Made by a program: the position numbers and the translations under genes
Notes under the pieces: generated by a model
Told to the model about the DNA's origin: nothing
The model's input: the letters and a program-made list of their open reading frames with translations, nothing else
Databases searched by the model: none
Assembly: GCA_023251875.1 (NCBI GenBank)
Contig: JAHEXY010000004.1
Coordinates: forward strand, 130,359-194,358
Origin: Bacteroidota bacterium
Lineage (GTDB): Bacteria; Bacteroidota; Bacteroidia; JAHEXY01
Direction of reading: 5' to 3'
DNA: 64,000 nt
Shown: positions 25,810-55,992 of the stretch, piece after piece
Layout: the number at the start of each line of letters is the position of its first letter
Numbering within the stretch: the stretch's first letter is position 1

Positions 25810-25895
25810 GGCTTTCTAAAAATTACAATTTTTGTGTCCCTCTCTTTGAGAGGGATTAAGGGAGAGAACATAAATAAAATAATTTTTAGAAAGCC
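25810..25895. repeat. MITE-like element (~85 bp) with 15-bp terminal inverted repeats GGCTTTCTAAAAATT / AATTTTTAGAAAGCC and internal CCCTCTC hairpin
   Basis: TIRs read directly; core TCCCTCTCTTTGAGAGGGATTAAGGGAGAGA; homologous copies at 33954-34032 and 55910-55992. Confidence 0.6.
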
Positions 25896-25953
25896 CTTAA
25901 TAATTACGAAGATAAATTATTAAAAAGAGGCTAACAAAATAATCAGTCGTATC

Positions 25954-27252
25954 GTGAACAATTCAAACAATGTGAATTTCATTATAACAAGGCTCAAAGG
26001 CCTGTCGATACTGACATTTTTATGTTTTTTACTACTAATTGCATTAACATCATTTAACGCCCCTATAGTTGAAAGTAATAAGGTGAATACCATCGCAGAA
26101 TCATTGTTTCTTCGAATTCCCAACATGCAGGGTATAAAAAAAGTTGTAATTGATGCCGGCCATGGAGGAGGCGATTCTGGTTGTCTTGGTTCTAAAGCCA
26201 AAGAAAAGGATGTGGCCCTCTCTGTTGCCCTTAAATTAGGTAAATTGATAGAAGATAACTGTAAAAATGTACAAGTAATTTATACCCGAAAAACAGATGT
26301 ATTTATTGAACTGCATAGGCGTGCAGAAATAGCCAATGAAAATAAAGCCGATCTTTTTATCTGTATTCATTGTAATTCTGGACCTAAAACCGCCTATGGA
26401 ACGGAGTCATGGGTAATGGGCCTTCATAAAACAGAAGATAATTTAGTAGTAGCCAAAAGGGAGAATGAATCTATATTAATGGAAAGTAATTATGAAGGAC
26501 ATTATGATGGCTTTGATCCAAAATCTCCGGAAGCTAATATTATATTTTCATTGTATCAAAATGCCTACATGGATCAGAGTTTAGATTTTGCGTCTTTAAT
26601 ACAAGCTCAAGTACATGATAATTTAAAACGTTATGATAGAGGCATAAAACAAGCGGGTTTTTTAGTTTTATATAAAACTACCATGCCAAGTGTATTGGTT
26701 GAAACCGGTTTTTTAACCAATGAAAATGAACAAAAATATCTTACTTCAGTAGATGGGCAAAATCATATTGCTTCAGCAATTTTTGAAGCCTTTAAAAATT
26801 ATAAAACAAAAATGGAAGGTGGTGTAGTTGCTAATGTTACAAGTATACCTATTAATGCAAGTAATAATGATGATTCTACCATTGAACAAACAAAAGAAGA
26901 GCCTTCTTCACCTAGTAAAAATGAAAAAACAAATGAATCCTTAAAAATTGATTCTGATAACAACACTGTATCTTCTAATCAAATAATATACAGAATTCAA
27001 GTAGCTTCATCAGTAGCAAAAATTACATCCAATGCTCCAGAACTTAAGGGATTAAAAAATGTAAAAGAAATAAAGCTAAATAATTCTTATAAATATTACT
27101 TTGGAGAATACGCTAAATTTGAAGAAGCAATTGATATGCAAGCAAAAATTCGATATAAGGGATTTAAAGATGCTTTTGTAGTTGCCTTTAATAATGGAAA
27201 AATTATTTCAGTAGCTGAAGCAAAAAAATTAAATAGTAATCAAGTTAATTAA
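25954..27252 (+). CDS. N-acetylmuramoyl-L-alanine amidase (Amidase_3) with C-terminal SPOR-like domain
   Basis: Signature VVIDAGHGGGDSG; zinc-amidase core; C-terminal region resembling a SPOR domain. Confidence 0.8.
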   Translation: MNNSNNVNFIITRLKGLSILTFLCFLLLIALTSFNAPIVESNKVNTIAESLFLRIPNMQGIKKVVIDAGHGGGDSGCLGSKAKEKDVALSVALKLGKLIEDNCKNVQVIYTRKTDVFIELHRRAEIANENKADLFICIHCNSGPKTAYGTESWVMGLHKTEDNLVVAKRENESILMESNYEGHYDGFDPKSPEANIIFSLYQNAYMDQSLDFASLIQAQVHDNLKRYDRGIKQAGFLVLYKTTMPSVLVETGFLTNENEQKYLTSVDGQNHIASAIFEAFKNYKTKMEGGVVANVTSIPINASNNDDSTIEQTKEEPSSPSKNEKTNESLKIDSDNNTVSSNQIIYRIQVASSVAKITSNAPELKGLKNVKEIKLNNSYKYYFGEYAKFEEAIDMQAKIRYKGFKDAFVVAFNNGKIISVAEAKKLNSNQVN

Positions 27253-27343
27253 ATAAACATTGAAACATTCATGCGCCATTTTCACAAAGAGAGATGAAAA
27301 TAACAGGAATGTTCCATTTGACTAAAAAACAAATTATTTTCAA

Positions 27344-28306
27344 ATGAAAATAAGTAAAGAAGTTAAGGTAGGTGGGGTAATGATTTTATCATTAGCTATT
27401 CTTTTTTGGGGACTAAATTTCTTGAAAGGTAATGATGTATTTAGATCGCATCGTACCTTTTATGGAAAATACAACGGTGTTGATGGCCTTGCCGTTTCAA
27501 GCAAAGTTTTGGTAAATGGATTTAAAGTAGGTAAAGTAACCAACATTTTTTTAGCCAAAGATCAAACGCAAGTTGTAGTTGTTTTTGATGTAGATAATAA
27601 TGATTTAGTTATCCCTAAAAACACAATAGCCAAAATGATTAGCGAAGATTATTTTGGAACCAAAGCTATATCATTAATTATTGGTGATACCAATGCTACT
27701 GCTGAAAACAAAGATACTTTGCAAACAGAAGCACAATCTTCTTTAACGGATGAAGTAAACAAACAAGTTTTACCCATAAAGAAAAAAGCCGAAAGTTTAA
27801 TTAGTTCAGTTGATTCTGTGGTAATAGCTTTTAGAGCCGTTTTTAATCCTAAAACCAATGAATCAATCAGGCAGGCTATTGCAAGTATTCAATCTACTTT
27901 GAAAAATGTAGAAACCATTTCATTTGGCTTAGATACAATATTAGGTTCTAAAAATTCAGAATTAGCTCAAATTGTAAATAATATAAAAGTGGTTTCTTCG
28001 AACATTAAAAAGAATAGTTATGAGCTTTCAACCATTATAAAAAATGTAAATGGGATAACAGATTCTTTGGCTGCCTCAAATATTACCAGTGTTATTAATC
28101 ATGCGAATGGATCATTAATGGAATTAGAATCAATTATTCATAAAGTAAATAGTGGAGAAGGCACCTTGGGTATGCTTATTAACAATGATAGTATTTATAA
28201 TAATTTAGCAACTTCATCAGCCGATTTAGATAAATTGCTCAAAGATTTAAAAGAAAATCCAAGTAGATACGTGCATGTTTCAGTATTTGGAAAAAAGGAT
28301 AAATAA
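27344..28306 (+). CDS. MlaD/Mce-family protein (lipid-asymmetry ABC system substrate-binding component)
   Basis: N-terminal TM helix followed by Mce domain (FYGKYNGVDGLAVSSKVLVNGFKVGKVTNI). Confidence 0.7.
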   Translation: MKISKEVKVGGVMILSLAILFWGLNFLKGNDVFRSHRTFYGKYNGVDGLAVSSKVLVNGFKVGKVTNIFLAKDQTQVVVVFDVDNNDLVIPKNTIAKMISEDYFGTKAISLIIGDTNATAENKDTLQTEAQSSLTDEVNKQVLPIKKKAESLISSVDSVVIAFRAVFNPKTNESIRQAIASIQSTLKNVETISFGLDTILGSKNSELAQIVNNIKVVSSNIKKNSYELSTIIKNVNGITDSLAASNITSVINHANGSLMELESIIHKVNSGEGTLGMLINNDSIYNNLATSSADLDKLLKDLKENPSRYVHVSVFGKKDK

Positions 28307-28324
28307 AGCCCTAAAAAATCACCT

Positions 28325-29647
28325 ATGATTGCAAACATACTCTTCCTTATACTTCTTATTGCAGGCTCCGCTCTTTTTACTATTAATGTTCGCAAGGTTA
28401 TTCGCAATATTAACCTAGGTAAAGATATTGACAGAAAAGACAATCCCTCTAAAAGGCTTAGCTCCATGATTAAGGTAGCTCTTGGCCAATCGAAAATGGT
28501 AGTGAGGCCGGTTGCCGGAATTTTACATATTATAGTTTATGCAGGTTTTATTATTATCAATATTGAAGTAATAGAGATAATAATTGATGGCATATTTGGT
28601 ACCCATCGTGTACTTTCATTTATGGGTCCTTTGTATAATTTTCTTATTGCCTCGTTTGAGTTTTTAGGTTTTGGAGTAGCTGCAGCCTGCGCCATTTTTT
28701 TAGTGAGAAGAAACATTATTAAAATAAAACGCTTTTGGAGCAAAGAAATTACATCTTGGCCTCGTACAGATGCAAACCTTATTCTTTGCACAGAAATTGC
28801 TTTAATGACAGCTTTCTTAACCATGAATGCGGCCGATTATTTACTTCAGCAACAACATTACGAACATTATATTTCTGTAGGATCATTTCCAATAAGCTCA
28901 AGTCTTATTGCTCCACTCCTATCCGGATTTTCATTACCCACCCTTGAAATGATCGAACGTATTTGTTGGTGGTTTCATATAATAGGTATTGTTTCTTTCT
29001 TAAATTATTTACCCTATTCAAAACATTTTCATATCATTCTTGCATTTCCTAATGTCTACTTTTCCAATCTTAACAATAAAGGAAAGTTCACCAATATGGA
29101 AGCCGTAACAAAAGAGGTAAAACTAATGCTTGATCCTAATGCAAATCCTTATGCCGCTGCTGACCCTAATGCTGCTCCGGTGCATAATAAATTTGGGGCC
29201 AAAGATGTTACCGATCTTACCTGGAAACAATTAATGGATGCATACTCCTGTACAGAATGTGGAAGATGCACATCAAACTGTCCGGCTAATATTACGGGTA
29301 AATTACTTTCTCCACGTAAAATTATGATGGATACCCGCGATCGATTAGAAGAAGTTGGAAAAGGCATTGATAAAAATGGAAAAGATTTTCAAGATGGGAA
29401 ATCACTTTTAGGCGATTATATTTTAGCTGAGGAATTATGGGCATGTACATCATGTAATGCATGCGTAGAAGCATGTCCGGTAAATATTGATCCTCTTTCT
29501 CTTATTGTCGACTTACGCAGATTTTTAGTAATGGAACAGTCTGCAGCACCACAAGAATTAAATATGGTATTTAACAATATTGAAAACAATGGAGCGCCTT
29601 GGCAATTTGCTCAGGCCAATAGATTAAAATGGACGGAAGAAAATTAG
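28325..29647 (+). CDS. Membrane-anchored iron-sulfur oxidoreductase subunit (two 4Fe-4S ferredoxin motifs)
   Basis: N-terminal TM helices; CTECGRCTSNCP and CTSCNACVEACP cysteine clusters. Confidence 0.7.
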   Translation: MIANILFLILLIAGSALFTINVRKVIRNINLGKDIDRKDNPSKRLSSMIKVALGQSKMVVRPVAGILHIIVYAGFIIINIEVIEIIIDGIFGTHRVLSFMGPLYNFLIASFEFLGFGVAAACAIFLVRRNIIKIKRFWSKEITSWPRTDANLILCTEIALMTAFLTMNAADYLLQQQHYEHYISVGSFPISSSLIAPLLSGFSLPTLEMIERICWWFHIIGIVSFLNYLPYSKHFHIILAFPNVYFSNLNNKGKFTNMEAVTKEVKLMLDPNANPYAAADPNAAPVHNKFGAKDVTDLTWKQLMDAYSCTECGRCTSNCPANITGKLLSPRKIMMDTRDRLEEVGKGIDKNGKDFQDGKSLLGDYILAEELWACTSCNACVEACPVNIDPLSLIVDLRRFLVMEQSAAPQELNMVFNNIENNGAPWQFAQANRLKWTEEN

Positions 29648-29719
29648 CTGATTAGCCAATGAGATGATGTGCTGATGGATATTTAAAAACATTGAACTCT
29701 AAACTTTGAACTTATACTC

Positions 29720-30502
29720 ATGAACTTTACCGTGCCCACAATGGCTGATTTAGCTGCTAAAGGAGAATCTCCCGAAATACTTTTTTGGGTTGGATGTTCA
29801 GGCAGTTTTGATGATAGAGCAAAAAAAATTACACGTGCTATTGCCAATATTTTACATCATGTTGGAATAAAATATGCTGTATTGGGAACAGAAGAGAGTT
29901 GTACAGGAGATCCTGCAAAACGCGCGGGAAATGAATTTCTATTTCAAATGCAAGCCATGCAAAATATTATGGTATTGAATGGTTATTCAGTAAAAAAAAT
30001 AGTTACCGGCTGCCCGCATTGTTTTAACACAATAAAAAATGAATATCCAGAATTAGGTGGTACTTATGAAGTAATTCATCATACCCAATTAATTCAGCAA
30101 TTAATAAATGAAGGAAAATTAAGTGTGCAAGGAGGGGCATTTAATGGCAAAAAAATCACCTTTCATGACCCCTGTTATTTAGGCCGAGGTAATGGTGTGT
30201 ATGAAGCTCCACGAGAAATAATTTCAAAACTAGATACTGAATTGGTTGAAATGAAACGCTCAAAAGCAAATGGCCTTTGCTGTGGAGCAGGAGGTGCTCA
30301 AATGTTTAAAGAACCTGAACATGGAAACAAAGATGTTAATATTGAAAGAACGGAAGAAGCTTTATCACTACAACCTAATATTATTGCTACCGGCTGTCCA
30401 TTTTGCATGACCATGATGACAGATGGTGTAAAACACAAAGAACAAGAAAAAACAATTCAAGTACTCGATGTAGCAGAATTGGTGAATCAATCTATAAAAT
30501 AA
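29720..30502 (+). CDS. CCG-domain (cysteine-rich) iron-sulfur protein, heterodisulfide-reductase/LutA-like
   Basis: Two CCG-type motifs (GCPHCFNT...CCGAGG and GCPFCMTMM); immediately downstream of the ferredoxin-type subunit. Confidence 0.7.
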   Translation: MNFTVPTMADLAAKGESPEILFWVGCSGSFDDRAKKITRAIANILHHVGIKYAVLGTEESCTGDPAKRAGNEFLFQMQAMQNIMVLNGYSVKKIVTGCPHCFNTIKNEYPELGGTYEVIHHTQLIQQLINEGKLSVQGGAFNGKKITFHDPCYLGRGNGVYEAPREIISKLDTELVEMKRSKANGLCCGAGGAQMFKEPEHGNKDVNIERTEEALSLQPNIIATGCPFCMTMMTDGVKHKEQEKTIQVLDVAELVNQSIK

Positions 30503-30619
30503 TAGACTGTATATCAAATACTACATTCTTATTTACTCATATTTTTAAAACCTTTTGTTACCTTTCTTCGTAAGAATGATAATTAGCCTAAAGCCTATTA
30601 TTTACTTTTATCGAAATGT

Positions 30620-31102
30620 ATGGTACACTATAGTGAAATGTCGGCAGAATCTAGAGTATGGGTTTACCAAAGTAATCGAGAATTTACATCTACAGAAATT
30701 GCAGAAATAAGAAAAAAAGGTGAGGTATTTGTAAACAATTGGACTGCTCATAAGCAAGAACTGAAAGCATGTTTTGATATATACTATAATTGGTTTATTG
30801 TTCTTATTGTTGATGAGGAACAAGCAAAAGCTTCTGGTTGTTCAATTGACAAATCTATTGCATTTATGAAACAACTAGAAAAAGAATACAACATCAATCT
30901 CTTCGATCGTTTAAATATCTGCTACGTAAAAAACGAAAAAGTAACTTCATGTAAATTAGCAGATTTTGAACCCTTAATTGAAAAAGGTGAAATATCCGGT
31001 TCTACATTTGTATTCAATAATCTTATCCGAACTAAAGAAGATATGGAATGCAATTGGCGAATTCCCCTGAAAGAAAGTTGGCACAAGAAATTTGTAGACT
31101 AA
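30620..31102 (+). CDS. Hypothetical protein
   Basis: 160-aa ORF without assignable motifs; likely start at the internal Met (MSAESRVWVYQ). Confidence 0.45.
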   Translation: MVHYSEMSAESRVWVYQSNREFTSTEIAEIRKKGEVFVNNWTAHKQELKACFDIYYNWFIVLIVDEEQAKASGCSIDKSIAFMKQLEKEYNINLFDRLNICYVKNEKVTSCKLADFEPLIEKGEISGSTFVFNNLIRTKEDMECNWRIPLKESWHKKFVD

Positions 31103-31121
31103 AATTATATACTTCCAAACT

Positions 31122-31157
31122 CCCCTCTCCTTTTTCAAGGAGAGGGATGGGGTGAGG
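31122..31157. repeat. CCCTCTCC/GGAGAGGG hairpin element (member of the CT-rich palindromic family)
   Basis: CCCCTCTCCTTTTTCAAGGAGAGGGATGGGGTGAGG; related copies at 35203-35232, 37171-37208, 37330-37366, 50440-50490. Confidence 0.5.
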
Positions 31158-31242
31158 TTTCAAAATTTTATTTCCCATTATTTTTTACTCCCAAATGTAA
31201 TCCGTATTATTAGGTTTAGATCATTTTAAAAAGCACAAGCTT

Positions 31243-33321: not shown

Positions 33322-33342
33322 GATGATAAATTTAGACTCTGC

Positions 33343-33909
33343 TTACAGTTTGTTTTTCATGAGCAATTGCATTGCTTGATAAATTGCAATTCCCACAAGG
33401 CTGCCAACAATTGCTCCTGCCAATACATCAGTAGGATAATGTACACCCAAATAAATTCTACTATAACATAAGAGTAATGCCCAAAATAGCATAGCCCACC
33501 ATAAATATTTTATTTTGTCTTTAATTTGGGGTGTAAGAAAAACCAAAATGCTAAAAGAATTAGCAGCATGCGAAGAAACAAATCCATAAGTACCGCCACA
33601 ACTATTATTTACTAAATGCAAAGAGTTTTGGATTTCAGTATTATGACAAGGTCTTAATCGCTGAACCAATTCTTTAAAAAGGTGAACTGAAATTTGATCT
33701 GAAAGTGTAATGGTAATGATTGCGAAAAAGACAATCAGAATACTGTCTTTTTTATAATGTTTAATCAGCAAAGCAACGATGAGAATATAAAACGGAATCC
33801 AGGTAAAACGTTCAGATGCCTGAAACATAATAAAATCAAGCCATTCTGTATGGAGGCCATTAATTTTTAAAAGAAGCCCAATATCGATATTTTTTAATTG
33901 TTCAATCAA
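33343..33909 (-). CDS. PAP2-family phosphatase (membrane)
   Basis: Motifs SFVSSHAANSFS and GVHYPTDVLAG. Confidence 0.75.
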   Translation of the reverse strand: MIEQLKNIDIGLLLKINGLHTEWLDFIMFQASERFTWIPFYILIVALLIKHYKKDSILIVFFAIITITLSDQISVHLFKELVQRLRPCHNTEIQNSLHLVNNSCGGTYGFVSSHAANSFSILVFLTPQIKDKIKYLWWAMLFWALLLCYSRIYLGVHYPTDVLAGAIVGSLVGIAIYQAMQLLMKNKL

Positions 33910-33953
33910 TTTCTCAATTATAACATTGAACTTAAAAACGTTGAACGACTAAT

Positions 33954-34032
33954 GGCTTTTAAAAAATTTATTATTTATTTCCTCTCCCTACCCTCTCAAA
34001 GAGAGGGACAAAAATGATAATTTTTAAAAGCC
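33954..34032. repeat. MITE-like element copy (TIRs GGCTTTTAAAAAATTT / AATTTTTAAAAGCC; core CCTCTCCCTACCCTCTCAAAGAGAGGGA)
   Basis: Same architecture as 25810-25895 and 55910-55992, in inverted orientation relative to the 25810 copy. Confidence 0.6.
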
Positions 34033-34033
34033 A

Positions 34034-35020
34034 TTATTCGTTAAGATTTTTCCAAAGTAAATCTTTTAATTCAGTAATACCCTTATCTGTAACTGCTGAA
34101 ATAAATACATGAGGAATATCCGGTAATTTTTTAGTGAGTTTTTTTACTGCTTTGGCATCAATCAAATCTAGTTTTGTGATTGCCAATATTCTTTTCTTAT
34201 CAAGCAACTCGGGATTATACTGTTCCAGCTCATTTACCAAAACCTCATATTCATGTTTGATATTTTCAGAATCAGCGGCCACCATAAAAAGTAAAATGGA
34301 GTTTCTTTCAATATGTCTCAGAAATCGTAAGCCTAAACCCTTGCCTTCATGAGCTCCTTCTATAATGCCCGGTATATCGGCCATTACAAAAGACTGAAAA
34401 TCTCTATAGGCTACAATTCCTAAATTAGGAACCAATGTAGTAAACGGGTAATTACCAATTTTAGGTTTTGCTGCAGACACTACCGAAAGTAAAGTTGATT
34501 TACCTGCATTTGGAAATCCCACCAATCCCACATCAGCCAATATTTTTAATTCTAGAACTTTCCAAGATTCTTGGCCTTCTTCTCCTGGTTGCGCATAACG
34601 CGGAGTTTGTTTAGTAGGCGTTTTAAAATGAGCATTACCCATGCCTCCTTTTCCTCCAGATACTAAAATTCTTTCTTCTCCTTCCTCTGTAATTTCAAAA
34701 AGTATTTTTCCGGTTTCAAAATCTTTAGCAACTGTACCAAGTGGTACTTCAAGAATTACATCTTCACCGGTTCGTCCGGTACACATACCGCCTTGCCCAT
34801 TTTTCCCATCTTGGGCAACCACATGTTTACGGTATTTAAGATGAATAAGCGTCCAAAGTTGTTTGTTACCTTTTAAAATTACACTTCCTCCTTTACCTCC
34901 ATCCCCACCATCGGGCCCACCTTGAGCGGTAAATTTATCTCTATACAAATGAACAGAACCTGCCCCACCCTTTCCGGACTTACAATTTATTTTTACGTAA
35001 TCTACAAAGTTTGATTCCAC
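34034..35020 (-). CDS. obg: GTPase Obg
   Basis: Obg fold N-terminus [21 protein letters not shown], glycine-rich [15 protein letters not shown]-binding motifs GFPNAGKST. The longest ORF starts at a TTG at 35071 inside a repeated leader motif; the GTG at 35020 gives a typical Obg N-terminus ([11 protein letters not shown]). Confidence 0.85.
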
Positions 35021-35221
35021 AGGTTTTAGTTCTAGGTTTAACAGTTCAAAGTTATAAAGTTCAATGTTCAATTTACCATTCTTTATAACTTATGTAAAAT
35101 AATTTATCTTGCGTTTAATTAAATGCAATAACTGAAAGAAGTTTTTTATTTTCTCTAGACTTGATAGAGTAAATATCAAAATAAATCTAAGAAGATTTTA
35201 TTCTCTCCCCTTTGGGGAGAG

Positions 35222-35806
35222 CTAGAGAGGGGTTTTACAATTATCAATTGCATTACTCAAGCGCGAAGTTATTTCTTCCACTTCTCCAATACCATTAATA
35301 GCAACATGTTTATTTTGTTTGCTATAATAATTCATTACCGGAGTAGTTTCATTGGTATAAACGTCAATACGTTTTTTAATTATGTTTTCGTCTTTATCAT
35401 CACTCCTACCTGACGACTCTCCTCTACCAAGTAATCTTTTAATTAATTCATCCCTGTCAACATTTAAAGACAATAAAACAGTAATAGATTCTCCCATTTT
35501 AGTAAGCATAGCATCTAATGCCTCAGATTGGGCCACCGTTCTTGGAAATCCATCAAAAATAAATCCTTCAGCATTTGGATTTTTCTTTACTTCTGATTCT
35601 AACATTTTAATGGTTACTTCATCAGGCACTAATTGTCCGGCATCAATAAAGCTCTTAGCTAAAGTGCCCAATTCAGTTGCTCCTTTAATATTGGCTCTAA
35701 AAATATCTCCGGTTGAAATATGTACAAGGTTATATTTAGTAATGAGAAGCGATGCTTGTGTACCTTTACCGGCTCCGGGAGGGCCAAATAGAATGATGTT
35801 CAACAT
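35222..35806 (-). CDS. adk: Adenylate kinase
   Basis: P-loop GPPGAGKGTQ; AMP-binding and LID segments. Confidence 0.9.
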   Translation of the reverse strand: MLNIILFGPPGAGKGTQASLLITKYNLVHISTGDIFRANIKGATELGTLAKSFIDAGQLVPDEVTIKMLESEVKKNPNAEGFIFDGFPRTVAQSEALDAMLTKMGESITVLLSLNVDRDELIKRLLGRGESSGRSDDKDENIIKKRIDVYTNETTPVMNYYSKQNKHVAINGIGEVEEITSRLSNAIDNCKTPL

Positions 35807-36392: not shown

Positions 36393-36403
36393 AATATTTA
36401 ATT

Positions 36404-37150: not shown

Positions 37151-37367
37151 TCATCGTGCCAGAAATTAAGCCCTCTCCCTCAATCCCTCTCCCAAAAGGA
37201 GAGAGAAGAAAGCCTTGAGCCTAGTATATATTATAACTTCTTAGACTTACTATTTTAAAAACATAAAAAAAATGAATTTTAAAAAATCAGACTTTCAAAT
37301 CAAAGTACATTCTTTAATCAGAGAACTTCCCTTCTCCCTTCGGGAGAAGGGCTAGGGATGAGGGCTT

Positions 37368-43153: not shown

Positions 43154-43198
43154 TTTGCGGTGATAAAGTTTCAAAATTTGAAACTTTATCACCGCAAA
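43154..43198. promoter_or_regulatory. 45-bp perfect palindrome containing the same core as the higBA-upstream palindrome
   Basis: TTTGCGGTGATAAAGTTTCAAA-A-TTTGAAACTTTATCACCGCAAA between convergent genes; core identical to 18555-18581. Confidence 0.45.
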
Positions 43199-45253: not shown

Positions 45254-45310
45254 ATATTTTATTTTTTACAGTTAAATATTTTTACCTCTTAATTTATCCG
45301 CGCTTCTATT

Positions 45311-45558
45311 TTGCTCAGCCAATGTCATTTTTTAAGCCCGAAAGGGCTTGAATTTTAATAACCTCTAGTGCAACTAGAGGAGAAATAAACTATTTTTTTA
45401 CAACCCTGAAAGGGTTGAATGCACTAGAAATTAAACCCTTTCAGGGTTACACTAATCTTGACTTACTTCCCCCAATTTTATTGGGGGTTATTAAAATTCA
45501 AGTCCTTCGGACTTTTTTTCCTCAGCATGGCAACACTCAAAACAGGCTGAGTCGAAGG
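45311..45558. repeat. Hairpin-rich ~250-bp repeat element (paralogue of 54292-54565)
   Basis: Shares GCTCAGC...ATGTC(A/G)TTTTTTAAGCC(C/T)GAAAGG(G)CTT and a terminal GGCTGAGTCGAAGG with the 54.3-kb element; internal stem-loops AAGCCCGAAAGGGCTT, CCTCTAGTGCAACTAGAGG, AACCCTGAAAGGGTT, ACCCTTTCAGGGT, CCCCCAATTTTATTGGGGG, AGTCCTTCGGACT. Confidence 0.6.
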
Positions 45559-45574
45559 ATATACAAATGCGTTT

Positions 45575-47283: not shown

Positions 47284-47284
47284 A

Positions 47285-48570: not shown

Positions 48571-48584
48571 ATATATTAAATAAC

Positions 48585-49478
48585 ATGAAAACAATTGGAG
48601 TTATAGGGGCAGGAACCATGGGCAATGGCATTGCACATACATTTGCTCAATATGGATATCAAGTTGCATTAATTGATGTAAGTGAAGAATCATTAAAAAA
48701 AGCAATTGCCACTATTGGTAATAATTTAGATAGAATAATTGCAAAAGGAAAACTTACAGAAGCTGATAAAACTAAAACACTTTCTCGTATTAAAACATTT
48801 ACCAAATTAGAACAAGCTATTGGTAATTGCGATTTAGTTATTGAAGCCGCTACTGAAAATATGGAAATAAAACTTAATATTTTTCGTCAGCTTGATCAAT
48901 TGTGTTCTTCTCAAACTATTTTAGCGAGCAATACATCTTCTATTTCTATTACTAAAATTGCTTCGGTAACCAAGCGAGCTGATAAAGTTATTGGCATGCA
49001 TTTTATGAATCCCGTTCCGGTAATGAAACTGGTAGAAGTAATTAGAGGTTATAAAACATCTGATGCTACTACTGAAACCATAATGACACTTTCTAAATCT
49101 CTTGAAAAAACTCCCGTTGAAGTAAATGATTATCCCGGTTTTGTAGCCAATAGAATTTTAATGCCCATGATTAATGAAGCTATTTATTCATTATATGAAG
49201 GCGTTGCCGGTGTTGAAGAAATTGATACTGTAATGAAATTGGGTATGGCTCATCCAATGGGCCCTCTACAACTTGCCGATTTTATTGGATTGGATGTATG
49301 TCTTTCTATTTTAAATGTTTTACATGATGGTTTCGGAAATCCTAAATACGCTCCATGTCCTTTATTAGTGAATATGGTAACAGCAGGAAATTTAGGTGTA
49401 AAAACCAAAGAAGGATTTTATGCTTACCAAAGTGGGACAAAAGAATTAAAAGTAAGTTCTTTATTTTTACACAAATAA
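48585..49478 (+). CDS. 3-hydroxybutyryl-CoA / 3-hydroxyacyl-CoA dehydrogenase
   Basis: NAD-binding Rossmann motif IGVIGAGTMGNGIA; conserved C-terminal dimerisation region. Confidence 0.85.
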   Translation: MKTIGVIGAGTMGNGIAHTFAQYGYQVALIDVSEESLKKAIATIGNNLDRIIAKGKLTEADKTKTLSRIKTFTKLEQAIGNCDLVIEAATENMEIKLNIFRQLDQLCSSQTILASNTSSISITKIASVTKRADKVIGMHFMNPVPVMKLVEVIRGYKTSDATTETIMTLSKSLEKTPVEVNDYPGFVANRILMPMINEAIYSLYEGVAGVEEIDTVMKLGMAHPMGPLQLADFIGLDVCLSILNVLHDGFGNPKYAPCPLLVNMVTAGNLGVKTKEGFYAYQSGTKELKVSSLFLHK

Positions 49479-50435
49479 TTGATCTACAAAACCAGTAAAA
49501 AGTTCTGTAAGATCAATACCGGCAACTTTTGCTTGTTTGGGAAGAATACTTGCAGGACTTAAACCTGGCAATGTATTTACTTCAAGTAAAAAAGGCACAT
49601 TATCTTTTATAATAAAATCAATACGCGACATATTTCTACATCCCAATAATTTAAAAACCTTTACAACTGTTTCCTGAATTTCTTTTGTTATTGCAGAAGA
49701 TAAACGAGCAGGAGTAATTTCATCGGCACCATTGGCAGAATATTTTTGTTCATAATCAAAAAAAGCAGTTTTAGGAACAATTTCAGTAATCGGCAATGCT
49801 CTTATTTCTCCTTTAAAATCAACAACTCCGCAAGTAACTTCCGTACCCGCTAAATATTCTTCTATGATAATTTCAGCATCAACTGAAAAAGCTTTTTCAA
49901 TGGCAGCATTTAAATCATTTCGAACATTAACTCTAGAAGCCCCTACACTAGATCCTCCGTTATTAGGTTTTACAAAGCAAGGAAAGCTTAATTGATTTTC
50001 TATACTACTTATAGCATCTCCTTTTTTAAATAAAAAAGAGTTGGCTGTTCGAATTCCAAATTGATTCAAAAAGCGATTGCAATATAATTTACTAAAGGTT
50101 AAAGCTGATACAAGAACGCCACATGATGTATAAGGTATACCCAATATATCCAAATATCCTTGAATTTTACCATCTTCACCCGGTGTACCATGAATGATGA
50201 TAAAAACTGCATCAAATTTTATTTTTTTATTATTAGATGTAAATGAAAAATCATTTTTATCAATAGCATGCTCTTTTTCATTTTCAAGTACATTCCATTC
50301 TTTACCATTAATAAGCACTTTAAAAGTATTGTACTTATTGGTATCAATATGATTCAAGATAGTTTGAACGCTTTTTAAAGAGATTTCTCTTTCTCCTGAA
50401 GTTCCTCCTGTTATAACGGCTATGTTTTTTTTCAT
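49467..50435 (-). CDS. ddl: D-alanine--D-alanine ligase
   Basis: ATP-grasp motifs; N-terminus MKKNIAVITGGTSGEREIS. The track ORF starts five codons earlier (50450), but those codons overlap a CT-rich repeat element. Confidence 0.85.
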   Translation of the reverse strand: MKKNIAVITGGTSGEREISLKSVQTILNHIDTNKYNTFKVLINGKEWNVLENEKEHAIDKNDFSFTSNNKKIKFDAVFIIIHGTPGEDGKIQGYLDILGIPYTSCGVLVSALTFSKLYCNRFLNQFGIRTANSFLFKKGDAISSIENQLSFPCFVKPNNGGSSVGASRVNVRNDLNAAIEKAFSVDAEIIIEEYLAGTEVTCGVVDFKGEIRALPITEIVPKTAFFDYEQKYSANGADEITPARLSSAITKEIQETVVKVFKLLGCRNMSRIDFIIKDNVPFLLEVNTLPGLSPASILPKQAKVAGIDLTELFTGFVDQLFV

Positions 50436-50567
50436 GATACCTCTCCCCAACCCTCTCCAAAACTTGTCCCGATTTTTCGGGAGGAGAGGAAGATTATATA
50501 TTAGTTTATAAAACTAAACTTAAGATAATTTTATAATTCCACAATACAAAAAGATGTTTTGTTCAAA

Positions 50568-51287
50568 TTAATTCACATTTAAAGTGGTATTGCTTATACC
50601 TGCTTCAATAAAATTATTGAGTTCTTTAAGAAGATTAAGGGATGTATTCCCAATTTTTTTATTTGTAGATTTTGCCATTTTATTTAAAATCTTCTTCATA
50701 TCGTCTGCATGTTCATACAAAACAGCAAAATTTTCTATTTCATTCAATTCATTTAAGGCCTCTTGAAGTTTTAATATTAAAGCATCAAATTCATTAAAAT
50801 CATAAAAAGCCTCACAATATCTAATCAGCCATACCAATTTGGTTTCTTTAGGAGCATTAATATACAAACCTCTTAATGAATAAAGTGTTGAATTTTTAAG
50901 CTGCAGTGTTTTTTGATTCATTTCTGTTTTCAAGGCTGCGCTATGTTCTGCAAACTTTTGATCGAGTTCGTTATTTTTTTGGTTCAATATTTTTTCTGTT
51001 TTGCTCGACAAATTATTATAAACAGCATAACCCAGCCCTAGCATTAAAAAAAGCACTACAATAGAAAATAAAAACAAATTATTCGACATTATTTTTTTCT
51101 CAGCCAAACTTTGAATACTTATTGCATTCAATTCCTTATTTCTTTGACTTAGTTTGTTTACATCCAATTTTAATTGCTCAATTTGTTTGGCTTGGTTTTC
51201 TGTACGCAATGAATCATTAGTTTGAGAAAATAATAAAATACTTTTAAGACTAATAAATAATGTAATGATGAATAGTTTGGCGTTCAT
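50568..51287 (-). CDS. Hypothetical protein (signal/TM plus coiled coil)
   Basis: Two hydrophobic segments and a coiled-coil-like region; no assignable motif. Confidence 0.45.
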   Translation of the reverse strand: MNAKLFIITLFISLKSILLFSQTNDSLRTENQAKQIEQLKLDVNKLSQRNKELNAISIQSLAEKKIMSNNLFLFSIVVLFLMLGLGYAVYNNLSSKTEKILNQKNNELDQKFAEHSAALKTEMNQKTLQLKNSTLYSLRGLYINAPKETKLVWLIRYCEAFYDFNEFDALILKLQEALNELNEIENFAVLYEHADDMKKILNKMAKSTNKKIGNTSLNLLKELNNFIEAGISNTTLNVN

Positions 51288-51354
51288 TTGATTGCATTTT
51301 AAAGTATTGGGGGAATAATAATTTTTGCAAAGGTATTTTTAATGCATGGGCTTA

Positions 51355-51573
51355 TCAACAGAAAATATTTCTTTTTATTAACAAAATAATGATGTAAGAT
51401 TTGATAGGCTCAACAATAATTTTATTGTTTACATAATCAGAAACTTGATATTTTTTTGAATCAGGTGCCTCTAGAAAATAAGCTCGTTCTTTAAAAATTA
51501 TCTCAGCAAAAAATTTGATACGATAATTGTCATATTCAAATTCATGACTCTCCGAATAATTTGCGCCTTTCAT
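51355..51573 (-). CDS. Hypothetical small protein
   Basis: 72-aa ORF; no motif. Confidence 0.3.
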   Translation of the reverse strand: MKGANYSESHEFEYDNYRIKFFAEIIFKERAYFLEAPDSKKYQVSDYVNNKIIVEPIKSYIIILLIKRNIFC

Positions 51574-51642
51574 ATTATTGATTAAGAAATATATTCATCA
51601 GTGCTAATCTTAAAAATCCGCATTATCCGAGTTTCAATATAT

Positions 51643-51720
51643 TTAAATCGTCTCTGGCAACGTATATTTTCTTCCTTTATTTTGCTCTTTTAAATATTGC
51701 ATAAGGGAAGCAAAATATCT
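51643..51720 (-). pseudogene. Displaced duplicate of the 3' end of the M2 peptidase gene (encodes RYFASLMQYLKEQNKGRKYTLPETI-stop)
   Basis: Own translation of the minus strand: this fragment encodes the same 25 C-terminal residues (one P/S change) and stop as the intact gene at 52332-52406, with differences mostly at synonymous positions. Confidence 0.7.
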
Positions 51721-51721
51721 T

Positions 51722-52099
51722 CTATGCAACCTTTAATTTAAATTTTGTATAAATTTCATCCGCTATTAAACCATGCAAAGAAATATCTGCTTGCGGTATT
51801 TCTTTCCACAAGATGCCTGTACCCATATTTTCATAATTATTCAGTTGCTCCATATTTGCATTTGCTAGACCAAGTATATCTGTAATATTTTTTTCAATTA
51901 TTGTTCCATTATTTAAAACAAACAGAATTCTATTTACATTTTTTTGAATCACTAAATGTGTAATTTCAAGTTTATTTGATTCAATTGCATCATCAATGGG
52001 ATCTATATCTTTAGAATAAAATTGAACCGTTTCATTTTCATTTTTAGTTTCAAGATTTTTCAAAAAATCTTCAGTTTCTTTATTTATTAAAGGTTTCAT
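51722..52099 (-). CDS. DUF2442-like protein (partner of DUF4160)
   Basis: 125 aa; C-terminal W...ADISLHGL segment resembling DUF2442; overlaps the upstream DUF4160 ORF by 20 bp. Confidence 0.55.
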   Translation of the reverse strand: MKPLINKETEDFLKNLETKNENETVQFYSKDIDPIDDAIESNKLEITHLVIQKNVNRILFVLNNGTIIEKNITDILGLANANMEQLNNYENMGTGILWKEIPQADISLHGLIADEIYTKFKLKVA

Positions 52100-52316
52100 T
52101 CCATTTGTTTATTAAAAGTTCATAATTTAAAATCACTATTTCTACTATTTGTTTAAGTTCTCTTGGTTTAAAATTACTGGCTTTTATAATTTTAATATCT
52201 GGCACTAAAATAATTTTAGCTTTACCACTAGCCTTTGCCACATGAATATGAATAGGTTCATGTTCATTCATAAAAAAATAAAATCTATATCCATTTATTT
52301 CAAATATTGTTGGCAT
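52080..52316 (-). CDS. DUF4160-family small protein
   Basis: 78 aa; MPTIFEINGYRFYFFMNEHEPIHIHV matches the DUF4160 signature (MP.I....G.RF.FY.NDH.P.H.HV). Confidence 0.7.
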   Translation of the reverse strand: MPTIFEINGYRFYFFMNEHEPIHIHVAKASGKAKIILVPDIKIIKASNFKPRELKQIVEIVILNYELLINKWNETFNK

Positions 52317-52331
52317 ATATATATAACAAAT

Positions 52332-54239
52332 TTAAATAGTTTCCGGCAAGGTATACTTTCTTCCTTTATTCTGCTCTTTTAAATATTGCATAAGCGGTGC
52401 AAAATAATCCATAATGGCTTTAGCACTCATTTCAGAACCTAATTCATCTTTTAAAACCAATCTCCAATCTTTAGAAGCTCCTGTACTCATTACTTCTTTT
52501 AAAAAGTTTCCAATTTCTTTGTTGCCGTAATAATTGGTTGAATGCGGATCTTGATGTAAAATATCTTTTGCGATGTGCTCATGAAATTGAAAAAGCAACA
52601 CATTAGCAATAGCATAATCATAATACTGTGCAGGATCATCATTAATATGTGTTTTAGAAGCTGCATCACAAAATTCTTCACCTCTTGTTGATGGAGGAAC
52701 AATACCTTGGTATTTTAATGCTAATTCCCACCATTTTTTGTTATACTGATCTACAGGTAAATTTTGTGCATATAAATTGTATTCGAACTCCGTCATAACA
52801 CCTGCAGCCCATGGAAGAACAACAACATAACTCAAAGCTTCTTTTAAAAGTTTTTGTGTATCATCTGTTTTTGTATTGGGATCTATTAATCCAAAATTGG
52901 CTAAGAAAGGTTTTTGCATAGAGGCTAATCCCATCATGGTTCCGAAAGCTTCATGAAAACCACGATTAGCGCCTTCTCTTAAAATAATAGGTACTTGTGG
53001 TGTTGAATAAGAACGGTAGTAATAAATATGTCCTAATTCATGTAGTGCAGTTTCCCACCAACGAGAATTAGCTTCAATGCTCATTAATGAACGTATATCA
53101 TCATCATGATTAATATGCCAAGCCGAAGCATGGTTATTTTTTTTGTAGCCTGCATCAAGCGGAGCGGGATACAAACTTGATTTTTCCCAGAAAGATTTTG
53201 GTAATGAATCAAAACCTAGGCTTACATAAAAACCTTCTGATTGTTTAATAATCCACTCCGGAGTTTTTTCTTTTAAAGCAGAATCAACGTTTAATCCCTT
53301 TACATCAACCAAATCATCCCATGATTGCCCCCAGCGATTAGGTAGCCAATGCGCAGGAAGCATATCCGGTACAGGTTGCTTGTATTTATTTGCCAATTCA
53401 TATCGGGCCCAGGTATGCAATTCACGAAAAAGCGGCCAAATGTCTTTTACCATATCATGGCAAACGTTCATCATTTCATCAGTAGTCATATTATAATCAG
53501 AAACCTGATACGAGAAAAAATCTTTATAACCCAATGCTTGCACCGACTGGTTTCTCAATTGTTGCAAATTTGCAAGCCCCGGTTTTAAACCTACGCCCAC
53601 TTCTTTACTGGCTTCCCAAGCTTTTAATCTTTCATTTAAATTATTAGATGCACCAAGAATAGAATCAATTTGGTTTACACTTACAGATTTGCCATCAATT
53701 TTAAAATCGTAACCAAATAGTTTTTCTGTTTGCTCATTATTGGCTTTAATAAGAGATTTTATTACGTCTTTTATGGTTTCAGGTCCACCGGCTGCAGAAT
53801 ACAAAACAGCATTGAGTTGACGAACCTCTATATCACTCAACTCATCTTTATGTTTTAAATATTCCGTTGCTTTATTAATATTATAGGCACTTCCACTAAA
53901 ATGATTATAAGCTTCACTTGCTACTTGAGCATTGTGTTTGGCAACAGTATCTCCTTCAACAATATGTGTATTCAATGCCCAATCTGCTTCTGATGATGCA
54001 TTGAGCAATTGTTTCATGGTATCATTATAAGCAACTAGATATTGATCTACTTCTTCTTTAATACTTTTTTGTTGGGTAGATGTTCCGCAAGCTGCAAATA
54101 AACAAATAGAGCTTAGAATTAAATAGTTTTTAAAATGCATACTATAAATTTTATGGTTAGAAATAAGAATGCAAAAGTAGGGAAAAGAGATGAAGCTTGA
54201 AAGGAGTATGAGAATATGAAAATCCGTTTTGCTAATCAA
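52332..54239 (-). CDS. M2-family (angiotensin-converting-enzyme-like) peptidyl-dipeptidase with signal peptide
   Basis: HELGHIYYY...LREGANRGFHEAFGTMMGL parallels the ACE zinc-binding HEMGHIQYY...LRRGANPGFHEAIGDVLAL region. Confidence 0.8.
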   Translation of the reverse strand: MISKTDFHILILLSSFISFPYFCILISNHKIYSMHFKNYLILSSICLFAACGTSTQQKSIKEEVDQYLVAYNDTMKQLLNASSEADWALNTHIVEGDTVAKHNAQVASEAYNHFSGSAYNINKATEYLKHKDELSDIEVRQLNAVLYSAAGGPETIKDVIKSLIKANNEQTEKLFGYDFKIDGKSVSVNQIDSILGASNNLNERLKAWEASKEVGVGLKPGLANLQQLRNQSVQALGYKDFFSYQVSDYNMTTDEMMNVCHDMVKDIWPLFRELHTWARYELANKYKQPVPDMLPAHWLPNRWGQSWDDLVDVKGLNVDSALKEKTPEWIIKQSEGFYVSLGFDSLPKSFWEKSSLYPAPLDAGYKKNNHASAWHINHDDDIRSLMSIEANSRWWETALHELGHIYYYRSYSTPQVPIILREGANRGFHEAFGTMMGLASMQKPFLANFGLIDPNTKTDDTQKLLKEALSYVVVLPWAAGVMTEFEYNLYAQNLPVDQYNKKWWELALKYQGIVPPSTRGEEFCDAASKTHINDDPAQYYDYAIANVLLFQFHEHIAKDILHQDPHSTNYYGNKEIGNFLKEVMSTGASKDWRLVLKDELGSEMSAKAIMDYFAPLMQYLKEQNKGRKYTLPETI

Positions 54240-54291
54240 ACCTCTACGAGCAATGTCATTAAGTTAAGGAGAAAATTAAGCCAACGCGCAT

Positions 54292-54565
54292 GCTTCGACT
54301 TCGCTCAGCACGACCTTTGCTCGGCTGTCATGCTGAGCGAACTATGTCGTTTTTTAAGCCTGAAAGGCTTTAATATCAATAGCCTCCGATTTTATCGGAG
54401 GTAAGAGTTTGATTGTTGATTATTGAACCCCTACGGGGTTCAACTGATTTGTTTGCATTTCCCCCTGATTTCATCAGAGGTTATTCAAATTTAATCCCTT
54501 CGGGATTGGGTGAACAACAAAGCATTACTCCTTAAAAAACGACATTGGCTGAGCGAAGTCGAAGC
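54292..54565. repeat. 274-bp hairpin-rich element bounded by perfect 18-bp inverted repeats (MITE-like or structured RNA)
   Basis: GCTTCGACTTCGCTCAGC (54292-54309) and its exact reverse complement (54548-54565); nested GTCGTTTTTT / AAAAAACGAC; internal stem-loops AAGCCTGAAAGGCTT, CCTCCGATTTTATCGGAGG, GAACCCCTACGGGGTTC, ATCCCTTCGGGAT. Confidence 0.65.
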
Positions 54566-54942
54566 GTCCAAAAAAAATCCTTTTGGTACCTTAAATAATG
54601 ACATTACTCTACGAGGTATGAATACGAACGGCCTTGCGTTTCTACAATACTATATGCCCTACAGGCAATTAATTAAAAATACGACATAGGCGTTAAAGTT
54701 TTGTAGAAGGCTATAGGTTGGGCATTAACACTTCCCGTAGCAATTTCTGTAGCGGCTGTTGTAATAAAACTTTACCATCATAAAGATATTATTGCAGATT
54801 TTAAAATATTTGCCATTCCAATCTTAATTGGAATTTGTTTAGCCGTACCATTAATGTATGTTACCTACAGAAACTTATATGAAAAAAACATGGATGAAGT
54901 AAAATCTATGTTAGAAGATTTAAAAGAATAATATTACAAAAT

Positions 54943-55103
54943 GGCTTCGGGAGCCTCAGCCATCGATGTAATTGGCAACTGAGGCTCTCGAAGTCACAAA
55001 AAACAAATCCTTCAAAGTTTAAAAAACCTTGAAGGATTTTTATAGAACTTGGCTTCGAGAACCTCAGCCAACATATACAAGGGTGCCTGAGGTTCCCGAA
55101 GGC
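54943..55103. repeat. Two paralogous ~52-nt hairpins separated by a perfect terminator-like hairpin
   Basis: Unit 1 54943-54994 and unit 2 55051-55103 (GGCTTCG(G/A)GA(G/A)CCTCAGCC ... CTGAGG(C/T)TC(T/C)CGAAG), with a G-C to A-T compensatory change in the stem; middle hairpin AAATCCTTCAAAGTTTAAAAAACCTTGAAGGATTT (55005-55039). Confidence 0.6.
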
Positions 55104-55112
55104 ACAACTAGA

Positions 55113-55751
55113 TTAATGTTTTCCGTTACCATTCATTTTCATACCCGCATTTACCAAAGCCATTTCAGGCTTATAACGTAAATGCGTTACTGATTTATAT
55201 TGTTTGCCTGTACTAGTAAAAGTGCGAAGTTCTTTTTGTGTTTCTTTATCCACAAATTTCATAATGGGTTGAGCAACCGTTTCTGATTTTAAAATAATTT
55301 TCTTTAGTTTTTTATCCCAGTCTTTATAATACGTATCAAAATCAGTTATACGTAAACGTTTACGGCAATTTTCATATCCGCAAGAAAGATCCATTTCATA
55401 TTCAACATTAAACAAACCGTATTCATCGGTAATTTGTTCTCCCGGAAAAATATCTCGGGTGGCAATTTCAAAACCATAGCCGGTACTCATGGTATTGCAA
55501 TTGCAGCAGTGATTTACATATTTAGCAATATCCCAACTAATGATTCGGTTTCCTTTATCATCAATAAAAGAATATTTGTCAATGATTTCTCGGTAATTGT
55601 TATCCAGAATAAGATAATTATCGGGTGAGATACTCACCTCTAATTGATCTTTTACATATACTATTGTTCCTTCAGGTATTAGATTGGTGGCGAAAACTCC
55701 GTATCCAACTGTGGAGTTCACCCATCGCAGTTCAGTGTCTGGATGTATCAT
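55113..55751 (-). CDS. SET-domain protein (putative protein-lysine methyltransferase)
   Basis: SET signature motifs YVNHCCNCN (NHxCxPN-like) and EQITDEYG (ELxxDYG-like), followed by a Cys-rich post-SET segment CGYENCRKRL. Confidence 0.7.
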   Translation of the reverse strand: MIHPDTELRWVNSTVGYGVFATNLIPEGTIVYVKDQLEVSISPDNYLILDNNYREIIDKYSFIDDKGNRIISWDIAKYVNHCCNCNTMSTGYGFEIATRDIFPGEQITDEYGLFNVEYEMDLSCGYENCRKRLRITDFDTYYKDWDKKLKKIILKSETVAQPIMKFVDKETQKELRTFTSTGKQYKSVTHLRYKPEMALVNAGMKMNGNGKH

Positions 55752-55909
55752 GACGGCTTAATGAGAAGATTTAAATGGTTATTAAATAATGTTGATTTGT
55801 AATTGAATTCTAAAATATGAATTATATATATAAACGACTGCAATTTACGAGCTATTTTTAAATAATTGTTAATTTTTTAGGTTAAATGTTAAGATCAAAA
55901 AGAATTTAA

Positions 55910-55992
55910 GGCTTTCAAAAAATTATATTTTTCTATTCCTCTCCCTTAATCCCTCTCTAAAGAGGGATACAAATTGTAATTTTTAAAAAGCC
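55910..55992. repeat. MITE-like element copy (TIRs GGCTTTCAAAAAATT / AATTTTTAAAAAGCC; core CCTCTCCCTTAATCCCTCTCTAAAGAGGGA)
   Basis: Third copy of the ~85-bp element seen at 25810-25895 and 33954-34032. Confidence 0.6.

Follow-up and report, generated by a model that had tools for sequence, protein, structure and literature searches.

A MITE-like family of ~85-bp palindromic repeats with an intrastrand-triplex-type core in a Bacteroidota genome

A short intergenic motif of Escherichia coli was first called BoxC, later the "potential intrastrand triplex" (PIT) element and then TM-ECO (PMC4666352), and its literature runs from Bachellier in the 1990s through Hoyne et al. 2000 to Holder et al. 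2015 (PMC4666352). TM-ECO is a class II purine-motif intrastrand triplex, and the isolated strand forms a stable triplex in vitro, which has gone undetected in vivo. The motif is always intergenic, shows neither promoter nor terminator activity in E. coli and has no link to gene function; 3,610 occurrences were counted in 262 proteobacterial genomes, where it is associated with local sequence variability between strains, and related G/C-rich motifs are abundant in cyanobacteria (PMC4666352). Here we describe a family of ~85-bp palindromic repeats, whose core is a motif of this kind, in 64,000 nucleotides of the genome of a Bacteroidota bacterium (contig JAHEXY010000004.1, positions 130,359 to 194,358), hereafter referred to as the window. 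To our knowledge, the BoxC/PIT motif has been followed for 30 years across phyla without a known origin, function or means of spread.

The TA flanks and the whole-length hairpin of the repeats recall RUP of Streptococcus pneumoniae, Correia/CREE of Neisseria and ERIC/IRU of enterobacteria. A prokaryotic MITE, or miniature inverted-repeat transposable element, is an AT-rich element of less than 500 bp with terminal inverted repeats of 4-30 bp, which targets AT-rich intergenic DNA and gives stable transcript hairpins; for Correia and ERIC elements, effects on mRNA processing are known (PMC10969869). We read the family as a lineage-specific, non-autonomous palindromic element of the MITE type that is inserted at TA and carries a triplex-motif core, and we give this reading a probability of about 0.55. 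Holder et al. found no link between the TM motif and mobile elements (PMC4666352), whereas here it lies inside a MITE-like palindrome. What goes beyond routine is that such a palindrome is centred on an enigmatic triplex motif, in a genome unusually dense in that motif.

The repeat family and its core

The first-pass annotation of the window had reported three copies of the repeat, with shared ends and a shared core and in both orientations, and all three were found where it had placed them (Table 1). The copies are homologous. With single copies as nhmmer queries in the 64-kb window, copy 1 matched copy 3 with E=8e-10 and copy 2 with E=9e-8, copy 2 matched copy 3 with E=2e-5, and there were no further full-length matches. 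In a three-way alignment, with copy 1 reverse-complemented, the mean column identity is 86%. Throughout, the strand of a copy or core is the one that reads pyrimidine-purine-purine; by this definition copies 2 and 3 run opposite to copy 1.

Each copy is built of two AT-rich arms of ~28 nt, which are inverted repeats of one another and end in (T)TAA-GGCTTTNNAAAAATT, around a G/C-rich core of ~30 nt. The 15-bp terminal inverted repeats of the first-pass annotation are genuine: they are perfect in copy 1, differ by a 1-nt indel in copy 2, whose right end (34019-34032) has one nucleotide deleted, and carry two mismatches in copy 3. The repeat is, however, not limited to 15 bp. It takes in practically the entire arms, which have an outer stem of 16-21 bp and additional pairs besides, and runs 4-5 nt outward into TTAA/TAAT. 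Each copy is an imperfect palindrome that folds into a single long hairpin, with an energy between -28 and -37 kcal/mol and z between -5 and -7.7, and none of 200 shuffles folded as well. The seemingly compensatory pairs of the outer stem partly reflect a one-column register shift, and the three sequences give no usable covariation.

The terminal sequence GGCTTTNNAAAAATT is present exactly at 25810(+), 25881-25895(-), 33954(+), 55910(+) and 55978-55992(-), and nowhere else in the window. This count is unremarkable by itself, with 5 matches against 1.38 expected and 3 of 100 shuffles reaching 5. The matches are, however, found exclusively in pairs that face inward and enclose the same core at a spacing of 78-85 bp, and it is this pairing, not the number of 15-mers, that matters. 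The first-pass annotation had itself raised the possibility of chance similarity between three sites, and three AT-rich palindromes could come to look alike in a genome of 32% G+C in which the terminal 15-mer alone is not significantly enriched. Such a coincidence has a negligible probability, given pairwise E-values of 8e-10 to 2e-5 over ~85 nt, ends that are paired around the same core and the existence of a fourth copy; the E-values and the fourth copy refute it.

The fourth copy was found at positions 1-62 of a short contig (L143), ~8.7 kb past the end of the window (nhmmer E=3e-9) and ~35 nt upstream of ruvX. It is diverged and partial: the contig begins inside it, and it retains the core (GAGAGGGATTAAGGGAGAGG) and one arm, with degenerate ends. 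The density of the family is thus four copies in about 73 kb, and copies 3 and 4 are direct repeats on either side of a 16.7-kb segment. Exact-protein look-ups gave short Logan contigs of the same strain from two runs, and contigs of these two independent assemblies break inside the cores of copies 1, 3 and 4; one contig starts within the core of copy 1, at 25837 of the window, and two end inside that of copy 3. The elements explain short-read assembly breaks of this organism at these points. Such breaks fit a multi-copy or strongly structured repeat, but they are circumstantial, because the exact stretches common to the four copies (19-22 nt) are too short to prove a multi-copy repeat.

On one strand the family core reads CCCTCTC - loop - GAGAGGG - short spacer - GGGAGAG. 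This is an asymmetric design of a pyrimidine block, a complementary purine block and a mirror-repeated purine block, with loops of 3 and 5 nt in copy 1, 3 and 2 nt in copy 2, and 4 and 3 nt in copy 3. The first-pass annotation had drawn this CT-rich hairpin core correctly overall, with small slips (the first block of copy 1 is TCTCTCCC, and the purine arm of copy 3 is shorter), and had not recognised it as the BoxC/PIT/TM motif. The ITxF class II definition asks for a pyrimidine block, a complementary purine block and a mirroring third block (G*G, A*A or T*A), with stems of at least 6 nt and loops of 1-6 nt. The family cores agree with this general ITxF class II, BoxC and PIT definition; the strict TM-ECO pattern CCCTCNCCC N3-6 GGGNGAGGG N3 GGGNGAGGG does not match them, as their blocks are of 7 nt and the second loop is of 2-5 nt. 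By its sequence, the family core belongs to the BoxC/PIT/TM intrastrand-triplex motif class.

The likeness to TM-ECO extends from the three-block design of C/T, G/A and mirrored G/A to a near-identical sequence, CCCTCTC(C) / GGAGAGGG / GGGAGAG(G), and to a strictly intergenic location on either strand, often near gene ends and variable between relatives (PMC4666352). In contrast to TM-ECO, the family stems are of 7 nt rather than 9, a single core sits atop an AT-rich palindrome with 28-nt arms, where the E. coli cores are bare or come as two inverted cores, and the host is a 32% G+C Bacteroidota genome. As an example of the E. coli arrangement, a pair of motifs, inverted against each other, lies 13 nt after the hrpB stop in strain MG1655. 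The density also differs, with at least 8 cores in 64 kb here against 23 in 4.6 Mb of MG1655. A three-block scan of the window, with 7-nt stems, a third block mirroring the purine block and at most one mismatch in that third block, returned 6 sites, against none in 30 Markov-simulated windows. The degenerate core at 37166-37210 and the long-loop core at 50440-50490 come in addition to these six.

Table 1. Repeat copies, terminal repeats and triplex-type cores in the window
Feature	Position	Strand	Remarks
Copy 1	25810..25895	+	86 bp; palindrome reaches 25806-25899
Copy 1, left terminal repeat GGCTTTCTAAAAATT	25810..25824	+	
Copy 1, right terminal repeat GGCTTTCTAAAAATT	25881..25895	-	perfect inverted copy of the left end
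Copy 1, core	25837..25866	+	(T)CCCTCTC-TTT-GAGAGGG-ATTAA-GGGAGAG; hairpin plus mirror purine block, class II intrastrand-triplex pattern
Copy 2	33954..34032	-	79 bp; palindrome reaches 33950-34036
Copy 2, core	33982..34007	-	CCCTCTC-TTT-GAGAGGG-TA-GGGAGAG
Copy 3	55910..55992	-	83 bp; palindrome reaches 55906-55996
Copy 3, core	55940..55967	-	TCCCTCT-TTAG-AGAGGGA-TTA-AGGGAGA
Core without shell	31124..31158	+	CCTCTCC-TTTTTCAA-GGAGAGG-GATGG-GGTGAGG; 21 nt past the stop of the open reading frame 30620-31102
Core without shell	35203..35232	+	overlaps the adk stop codon and last codons; three-block scan
Degenerate core-only copy	37166..37210	-	CCCTCTCCCTCAATCCCTCTCCCAAAAGGAGAGAG on the + strand; matches the family profile in its core alone, with E=5e-4
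Core without shell	37329..37366	+	directly after the M13-peptidase stop; three-block scan
Core with long loop	50440..50490	-	nested hairpin in the loop; immediately upstream of the ddl ATG (50436)

Empty sites and mode of insertion

To compare the sites of the copies with those of other genomes, relatives were reached through the Fe-S protein encoded between copies 1 and 2 (86, 85 and 83% identity), the PAP2 phosphatase (73-81%) and the SET-domain protein (87%). The first-pass annotation had proposed to look for strains with empty sites. Empty sites were found, for copies 1 and 2, in relatives with 73-87% protein identity, not in strains. The LptD-amidase spacer, which holds copy 1 in the window, is empty in L139, L140 and L146. 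These relatives share with the window the flanks …GAAAGCAATTTAT.AAATACTATTTTTG… and …TACGAAGATAAATT…GCTAACAAAATAATC… without the element, and the conserved flanks GTGTTTA... and ...TACGAAGATAA bound the empty site in all three. The site of copy 2 is empty in L141, whose obg-PAP2 spacer is 27 bp: the window has gaaTAAtGGC…GCCatTAGtcgttcaac where L141 has gaaTAGgctggttaaat. When ATGGC...GCCATTA is taken out of the window, gaaTAAtggc...gccatTAGtcg becomes gaaTAGtcg, and L141 reads gaaTAGgct. Because this excision restores gaaTAG, copy 2 sits in the obg stop codon, which the insertion would have rebuilt, and the two sequences differ in the way expected from a duplicated TA. Each of the full copies in the window, too, has a possible reading as TA-element-TA. 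At the same obg-PAP2 site, two assemblies of a further relative (L147 and L148) both break just downstream.

The surroundings of copy 3 differ on a larger scale. In the relative L149 (9212-10633; SET 87%) the ABC-transporter gene is followed directly by the SET gene, and the RND efflux operon (56009-62191) is missing from that interval; since L149 lacks the whole operon, copy 3 lies at the edge of a 6-kb difference, at the operon/SET junction. In the window this operon, placed between the ABC-transporter and SET-domain genes, comprises a 120-aa open reading frame (ORF) and MFP, AcrB-like and TolC-like genes. In a strain contained in ERZ27296333, which has a 98%-identical SET protein, the spacer upstream of SET is 154 bp, 103 bp less than the 257 bp here, a gap of about one element in a comparison of lengths alone.

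The family was then sought on a wider scale. The family profile found no copy in 56 kb of DNA of the closest relatives, and a pattern made of the left end and the start of the core gave no true match in 185,579 representative genomes (one per species); 12 single matches there, in unrelated phyla, were judged to be due to chance. Scans of IMG/VR for the two ends as a pair, and for the 19-nt core as an exact string, returned no matches, and BLAST of the copies against plasmid and phage records gave short chance matches only. Because sites are empty in relatives, and no copy was found in relatives, representative genomes or IMG/VR, the family is restricted to this lineage and appears to have been inserted recently. 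Gain in the lineage of the window is a simpler reading than loss in the relatives, which are not strains of the same species.

The family has the features of a MITE in being short and non-coding (79-86 bp) and in having terminal inverted repeats, dispersed copies (3 plus 1 partial) and filled and empty sites. According to our preferred reading, a transposase encoded elsewhere in the genome would recognise the terminal repeats, and the element would insert at TA in AT-rich intergenic DNA with duplication of the TA, as IS630-mobilised MITEs do. The core would be a passenger, or else would have a structural role in the formation or upkeep of the element's hairpin. The copies would be mainly selfish DNA, and would probably affect mRNA 3'-end stability or processing, as Correia and ERIC elements do, because stable hairpins follow stop codons (obg, OEP) or lie in 5' regions (amidase/LptD, ruvX). 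RUP, Correia and ERIC elements are similar in size (~80-150 bp), in being non-coding with terminal inverted repeats, in forming one long hairpin over the whole element, in their AT-rich TA targets, and in lying between genes in either orientation at sites that are filled or empty between relatives. The family shares no sequence similarity with them, and has a G/C-rich triplex-type core instead of an integration host factor (IHF) site or a promoter.

Several points weigh against the MITE-type reading. The TTAA/TAAT flanks belong to the palindrome, so that a TA or TTAA duplication would look the same as terminal repeats of greater length; in addition, TA and GGC are 1-2 nt apart, depending on the copy. 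The first-pass label of a MITE-like family is upheld as far as a repeat family with terminal inverted repeats, empty sites and a fourth copy goes. In the 64-kb window, however, there is no insertion sequence (IS) or transposase with matching ends, and no DDE transposase. The family is known from four copies, those in the window and the one just beyond, and the ends of the latter are degenerate (CCGTTCC instead of GGCTTTC). With relatives of no more than 73-87% protein identity, the "empty" sites may instead have lost the element by deletion. Relative to the gene downstream, all four copies are oriented alike, which at n=4 hints at selection or function over random insertion. Finally, the window holds at least five bare cores, and the core may therefore spread on its own.

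The family could instead be REPIN-like, with the 85-bp hairpin as the substrate of the single-strand-specific HUH (Y1) transposase encoded at 4457-4888; spread would then occur via single-stranded DNA during replication, without target duplication. This alternative stays alive because the single-copy, IS200-like Y1 gene is the only transposase gene in the window, and we hold it to be unlikely but deserving of attention. The gene codes for a 143-aa Y1 transposase (PF01797), the sole member of a transposase family in the 64 kb, which passes the NCBIfam IS200 model narrowly (57.9 bits against a cut-off of 55) and is single-copy in the collection, as housekeeping genes are. It is surrounded by small GC-rich hairpins, among them GGCTTTAGCC, which is found exactly 5 times within 11 kb and, with at most one mismatch, 12 times against 2.55 expected. 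The ends of the element share AA-N-GGCTTT with the GGCTTTAGCC mini-hairpins. REPIN/RAYT systems (Bertels & Rainey 2011, PMC3116915) likewise combine a lineage-specific long-hairpin repeat of ~80-100 bp, the size of the element, which is itself one long hairpin, with a single-copy Y1 gene flanked by small hairpins, here present in the same window. However, the Y1 protein scores 28.1 bits with the model of REP-associated transposases (NF047646), whose cut-off is 80, and it thus falls below the limit for RAYT. The family profile has no match near the Y1 gene (4.2-4.9 kb), whose flanks hold GGCTTTAGCC and other hairpins instead, and the comparison of copy 2 with L141 fits a TA duplication. Repetitive extragenic palindromic (REP) sequences usually have G/C-rich stems and a conserved 5' tetranucleotide; the arms of the element, by contrast, are AT-rich and not REP-like palindromes.

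The Y1 region (4240-4960) has further structure: direct repeats of ~60 nt (4267-4327 / 4878-4936) flank the gene, together with several small G/C hairpins. The exact copies of GGCTTTAGCC lie at 158, 4272, 4430, 4883 and 11049 (regions 154-181 and 11045-11072 among them). The Y1 gene and these hairpins may be a REP/RAYT-like system in a Bacteroidota metagenome-assembled genome (MAG).

Cores without a palindromic shell

The window contains at least eight triplex-type cores, the three of the family and five without a palindromic shell (Table 1). Of the latter, the core at 31124..31158 is not found in the relatives L140 and L146. The core at 35203-35232 replaces the last three adk codons, the protein ending in ...DNCKTPL* here and in ...DNSLKFQ* in L141. 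The core after the M13-peptidase stop is kept at the same place in L141 (~80% identity; L141 1429-1459), and this is the one three-block site in the relatives' 56 kb. All blocks have changed in a matching way between the two genomes, CCCTTCTCCC/GGGAGAAGGG/GGGATGAGGG against CCTCTCC/GGAGAGG/GGGGTGAGG. Either a conserved structure or an independent insertion at the same spot could account for the presence of this core in both. At 50440-50490 the loop is 24 nt long and has its own hairpin (TCCCGATTTTTCGGGA).

Outside this lineage, the same core (…CCTCTCCCT-AA-CCCTCTCC-loop-GGAGAGGG…) was observed in ~50 contigs, metagenomic and viral, which are unrelated and have 29-73% G+C, and nearly always bare. 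A metagenome scan with AAAAATT plus a double pyrimidine block gave at least 120 matches; among the matches listed, about half are CT-rich low-complexity DNA and the rest bare cores, and the family ends are absent. One viral contig differs (L017, IMG/VR UViG_2861373631_000001). It has an 83-bp palindrome at 1363-1445, intergenic within a type I-D CRISPR-Cas locus (Csc2), which reads TTCAAAAAGAAA…TTTCTTTTTGAA and whose apex is formed by the same triplex-type core; the architecture is that of the family and the ends are different. A search of IMG/VR with the L017 ends gave no other core-bearing copy. A chance match of the genome scan in a Gracilibacteria MAG (L003, 2304-2380) has its own CT-rich three-block motif, CCCTCTCTC-TTCAAT-TCTCTCTCCCT-TATA-GGGAGAAAGAGG, which shows how widely such motifs occur.

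These bare cores raise the question of which unit is primary. The triplex-type core might come first, arising or being copied, through a process tied to replication or repair, into or beside AT-rich palindromes; the shell would then be a preferred target or a small sub-family and not a transposon end. In the window, shell-less cores outnumber shelled ones and, by gain or loss, also differ in presence between the window and relatives, and in unrelated contigs the core nearly always lacks the shell. The L017 palindrome, with its different ends, points in the same direction, as does the obg-PAP2 site of L142 (1-135; PAP2 81% identical), which begins with TAATGGCTTTTTAAAAA, the same 17 terminal bases as the end of copy 2, and continues with a different palindrome, CTTCGACTCCGCTCAG…GCGGAGTCGAAG. 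On the other hand, homology between the three copies takes in the arms as a whole and not just the ends, the empty sites miss the whole 80-90 bp and not the core alone, and no mechanism for copying a 30-nt motif is known. We regard a core-first origin as distinctly unlikely.

A proposal that joins the two observations is that the BoxC/PIT motif disperses inside small palindromic mobile elements, or as their functional heart. We offer it as a speculation that is probably wrong. If it were true, this family and the 83-bp element of L017 would be the first cases in which the vehicle is still visible, and bare cores would be remnants left after decay of the arms. If the link between palindrome and motif holds genome-wide, it would provide a testable route for the spread of the motif, and a natural set of filled and empty sites with which to study effects of the motif on replication, recombination and mRNA fate.

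Gene context and other repeats

The window, of 32% G+C, contains genes for LptD_2, for type IX secretion sorting domains and for further markers of Bacteroidota; among named homologues, the nearest are proteins of Bacteroidia/Flavobacteriales MAGs, with ~70% identity. Copies 1 to 3 are all intergenic, as had been annotated, in the LptD/amidase, obg/PAP2 and OEP/SET spacers. Copy 1 is in the spacer of a divergent gene pair, upstream of both genes: the LptD start (25697, minus strand) is 113 nt away and the amidase start (25954) 59 nt. Copy 2 occupies the spacer that runs from the obg stop (34034-34036) to the start of PAP2 (33909), and has this phosphatase gene 44 nt downstream; it starts one base past the obg stop codon, which its palindrome overlaps. 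Copy 3 is placed between the stop of the TolC-like OEP gene (56009) and the start of the SET-domain gene (55751), 11-16 nt past the former and 158 nt upstream of the latter.

The elements also mark false 5' extensions of the LptD and ddl reading frames. The sole ORF that overlaps a copy is that of LptD, which enters copy 1 only through a spurious, unconserved extension of 58 codons. The conserved N-terminus, MALWLCLL (ATG 25697), aligns with MALFLFST in a relative, which upholds the downstream ATG for which the first-pass annotation had argued. The downstream start that it favoured for ddl (49467-50436, minus strand; ATG 50436, MKKNIAVITGG) is also right, but the gene adjoins none of the three copies, and the argument rests instead on the shell-less core at 50440-50490, which the spurious TTG extension overlaps. 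The last block of this core on the ddl sense strand, GGGGAGAGG, resembles a strong Shine-Dalgarno sequence, as its end is 4 nt from the ATG that follows; Bacteroidota are not known to use such sequences.

The position of the copies next to genes is what a structural element selected by the host would also show, be it a stabiliser of mRNA 3' ends, a terminator, a processing site or a small RNA, rather than selfish DNA. Copies 2 and 3 start 1-16 nt past stop codons, of the 8 sites that bear a core 5 have a stop codon no more than 21 nt upstream, and the four family copies share their orientation relative to the downstream gene. The hairpins of the copies are very stable, and the M13-peptidase core is kept in a relative with compensating differences. 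Scans for a hairpin followed by a T-run terminator and for the sigma-70 promoter consensus were nonetheless at background, and Rfam gave no family at the gathering score, with palindrome noise only at E<=5. The elements are missing from the same sites in relatives and are thus not conserved parts of these transcription units, and the absence of promoter and terminator activity of PIT/TM motifs in E. coli (PMC4666352) points the same way. Host selection as the reason for the family is, in our view, improbable, while effects of the copies on mRNA ends are plausible because of the positions right after stop codons and the common orientation of all four copies.

Other repeats were noticed in the window. 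Long intergenic arrays of many different G/C-rich tetraloop hairpins occupy 45290-45560 and 54280-54570; they are nested in outer inverted repeats of the CTTCGACTTCGCTCAGC / GCTGAGCGAAGTCGAAGCG type, and the two loci share arms. These arrays are a second nested palindromic repeat family, unrelated to the ~85-bp family. Beside them, at 54940-55110, there are two copies of a TGGCTTCG.GA.CCTCAGCC palindrome. A perfect 27-nt palindrome, ATAAAGTTTCAAAATTTGAAACTTTAT, occurs at 18555-18581 and 43163-43189, one locus being just upstream of a HigB-toxin gene (18610-18918). An 82-nt direct repeat with 87% identity is present at 51636-51717 and 52325-52406, with a distance of 689 bp between its units; these lie at the 5' ends of two genes, for a DUF2442 protein and for the M2 peptidase.

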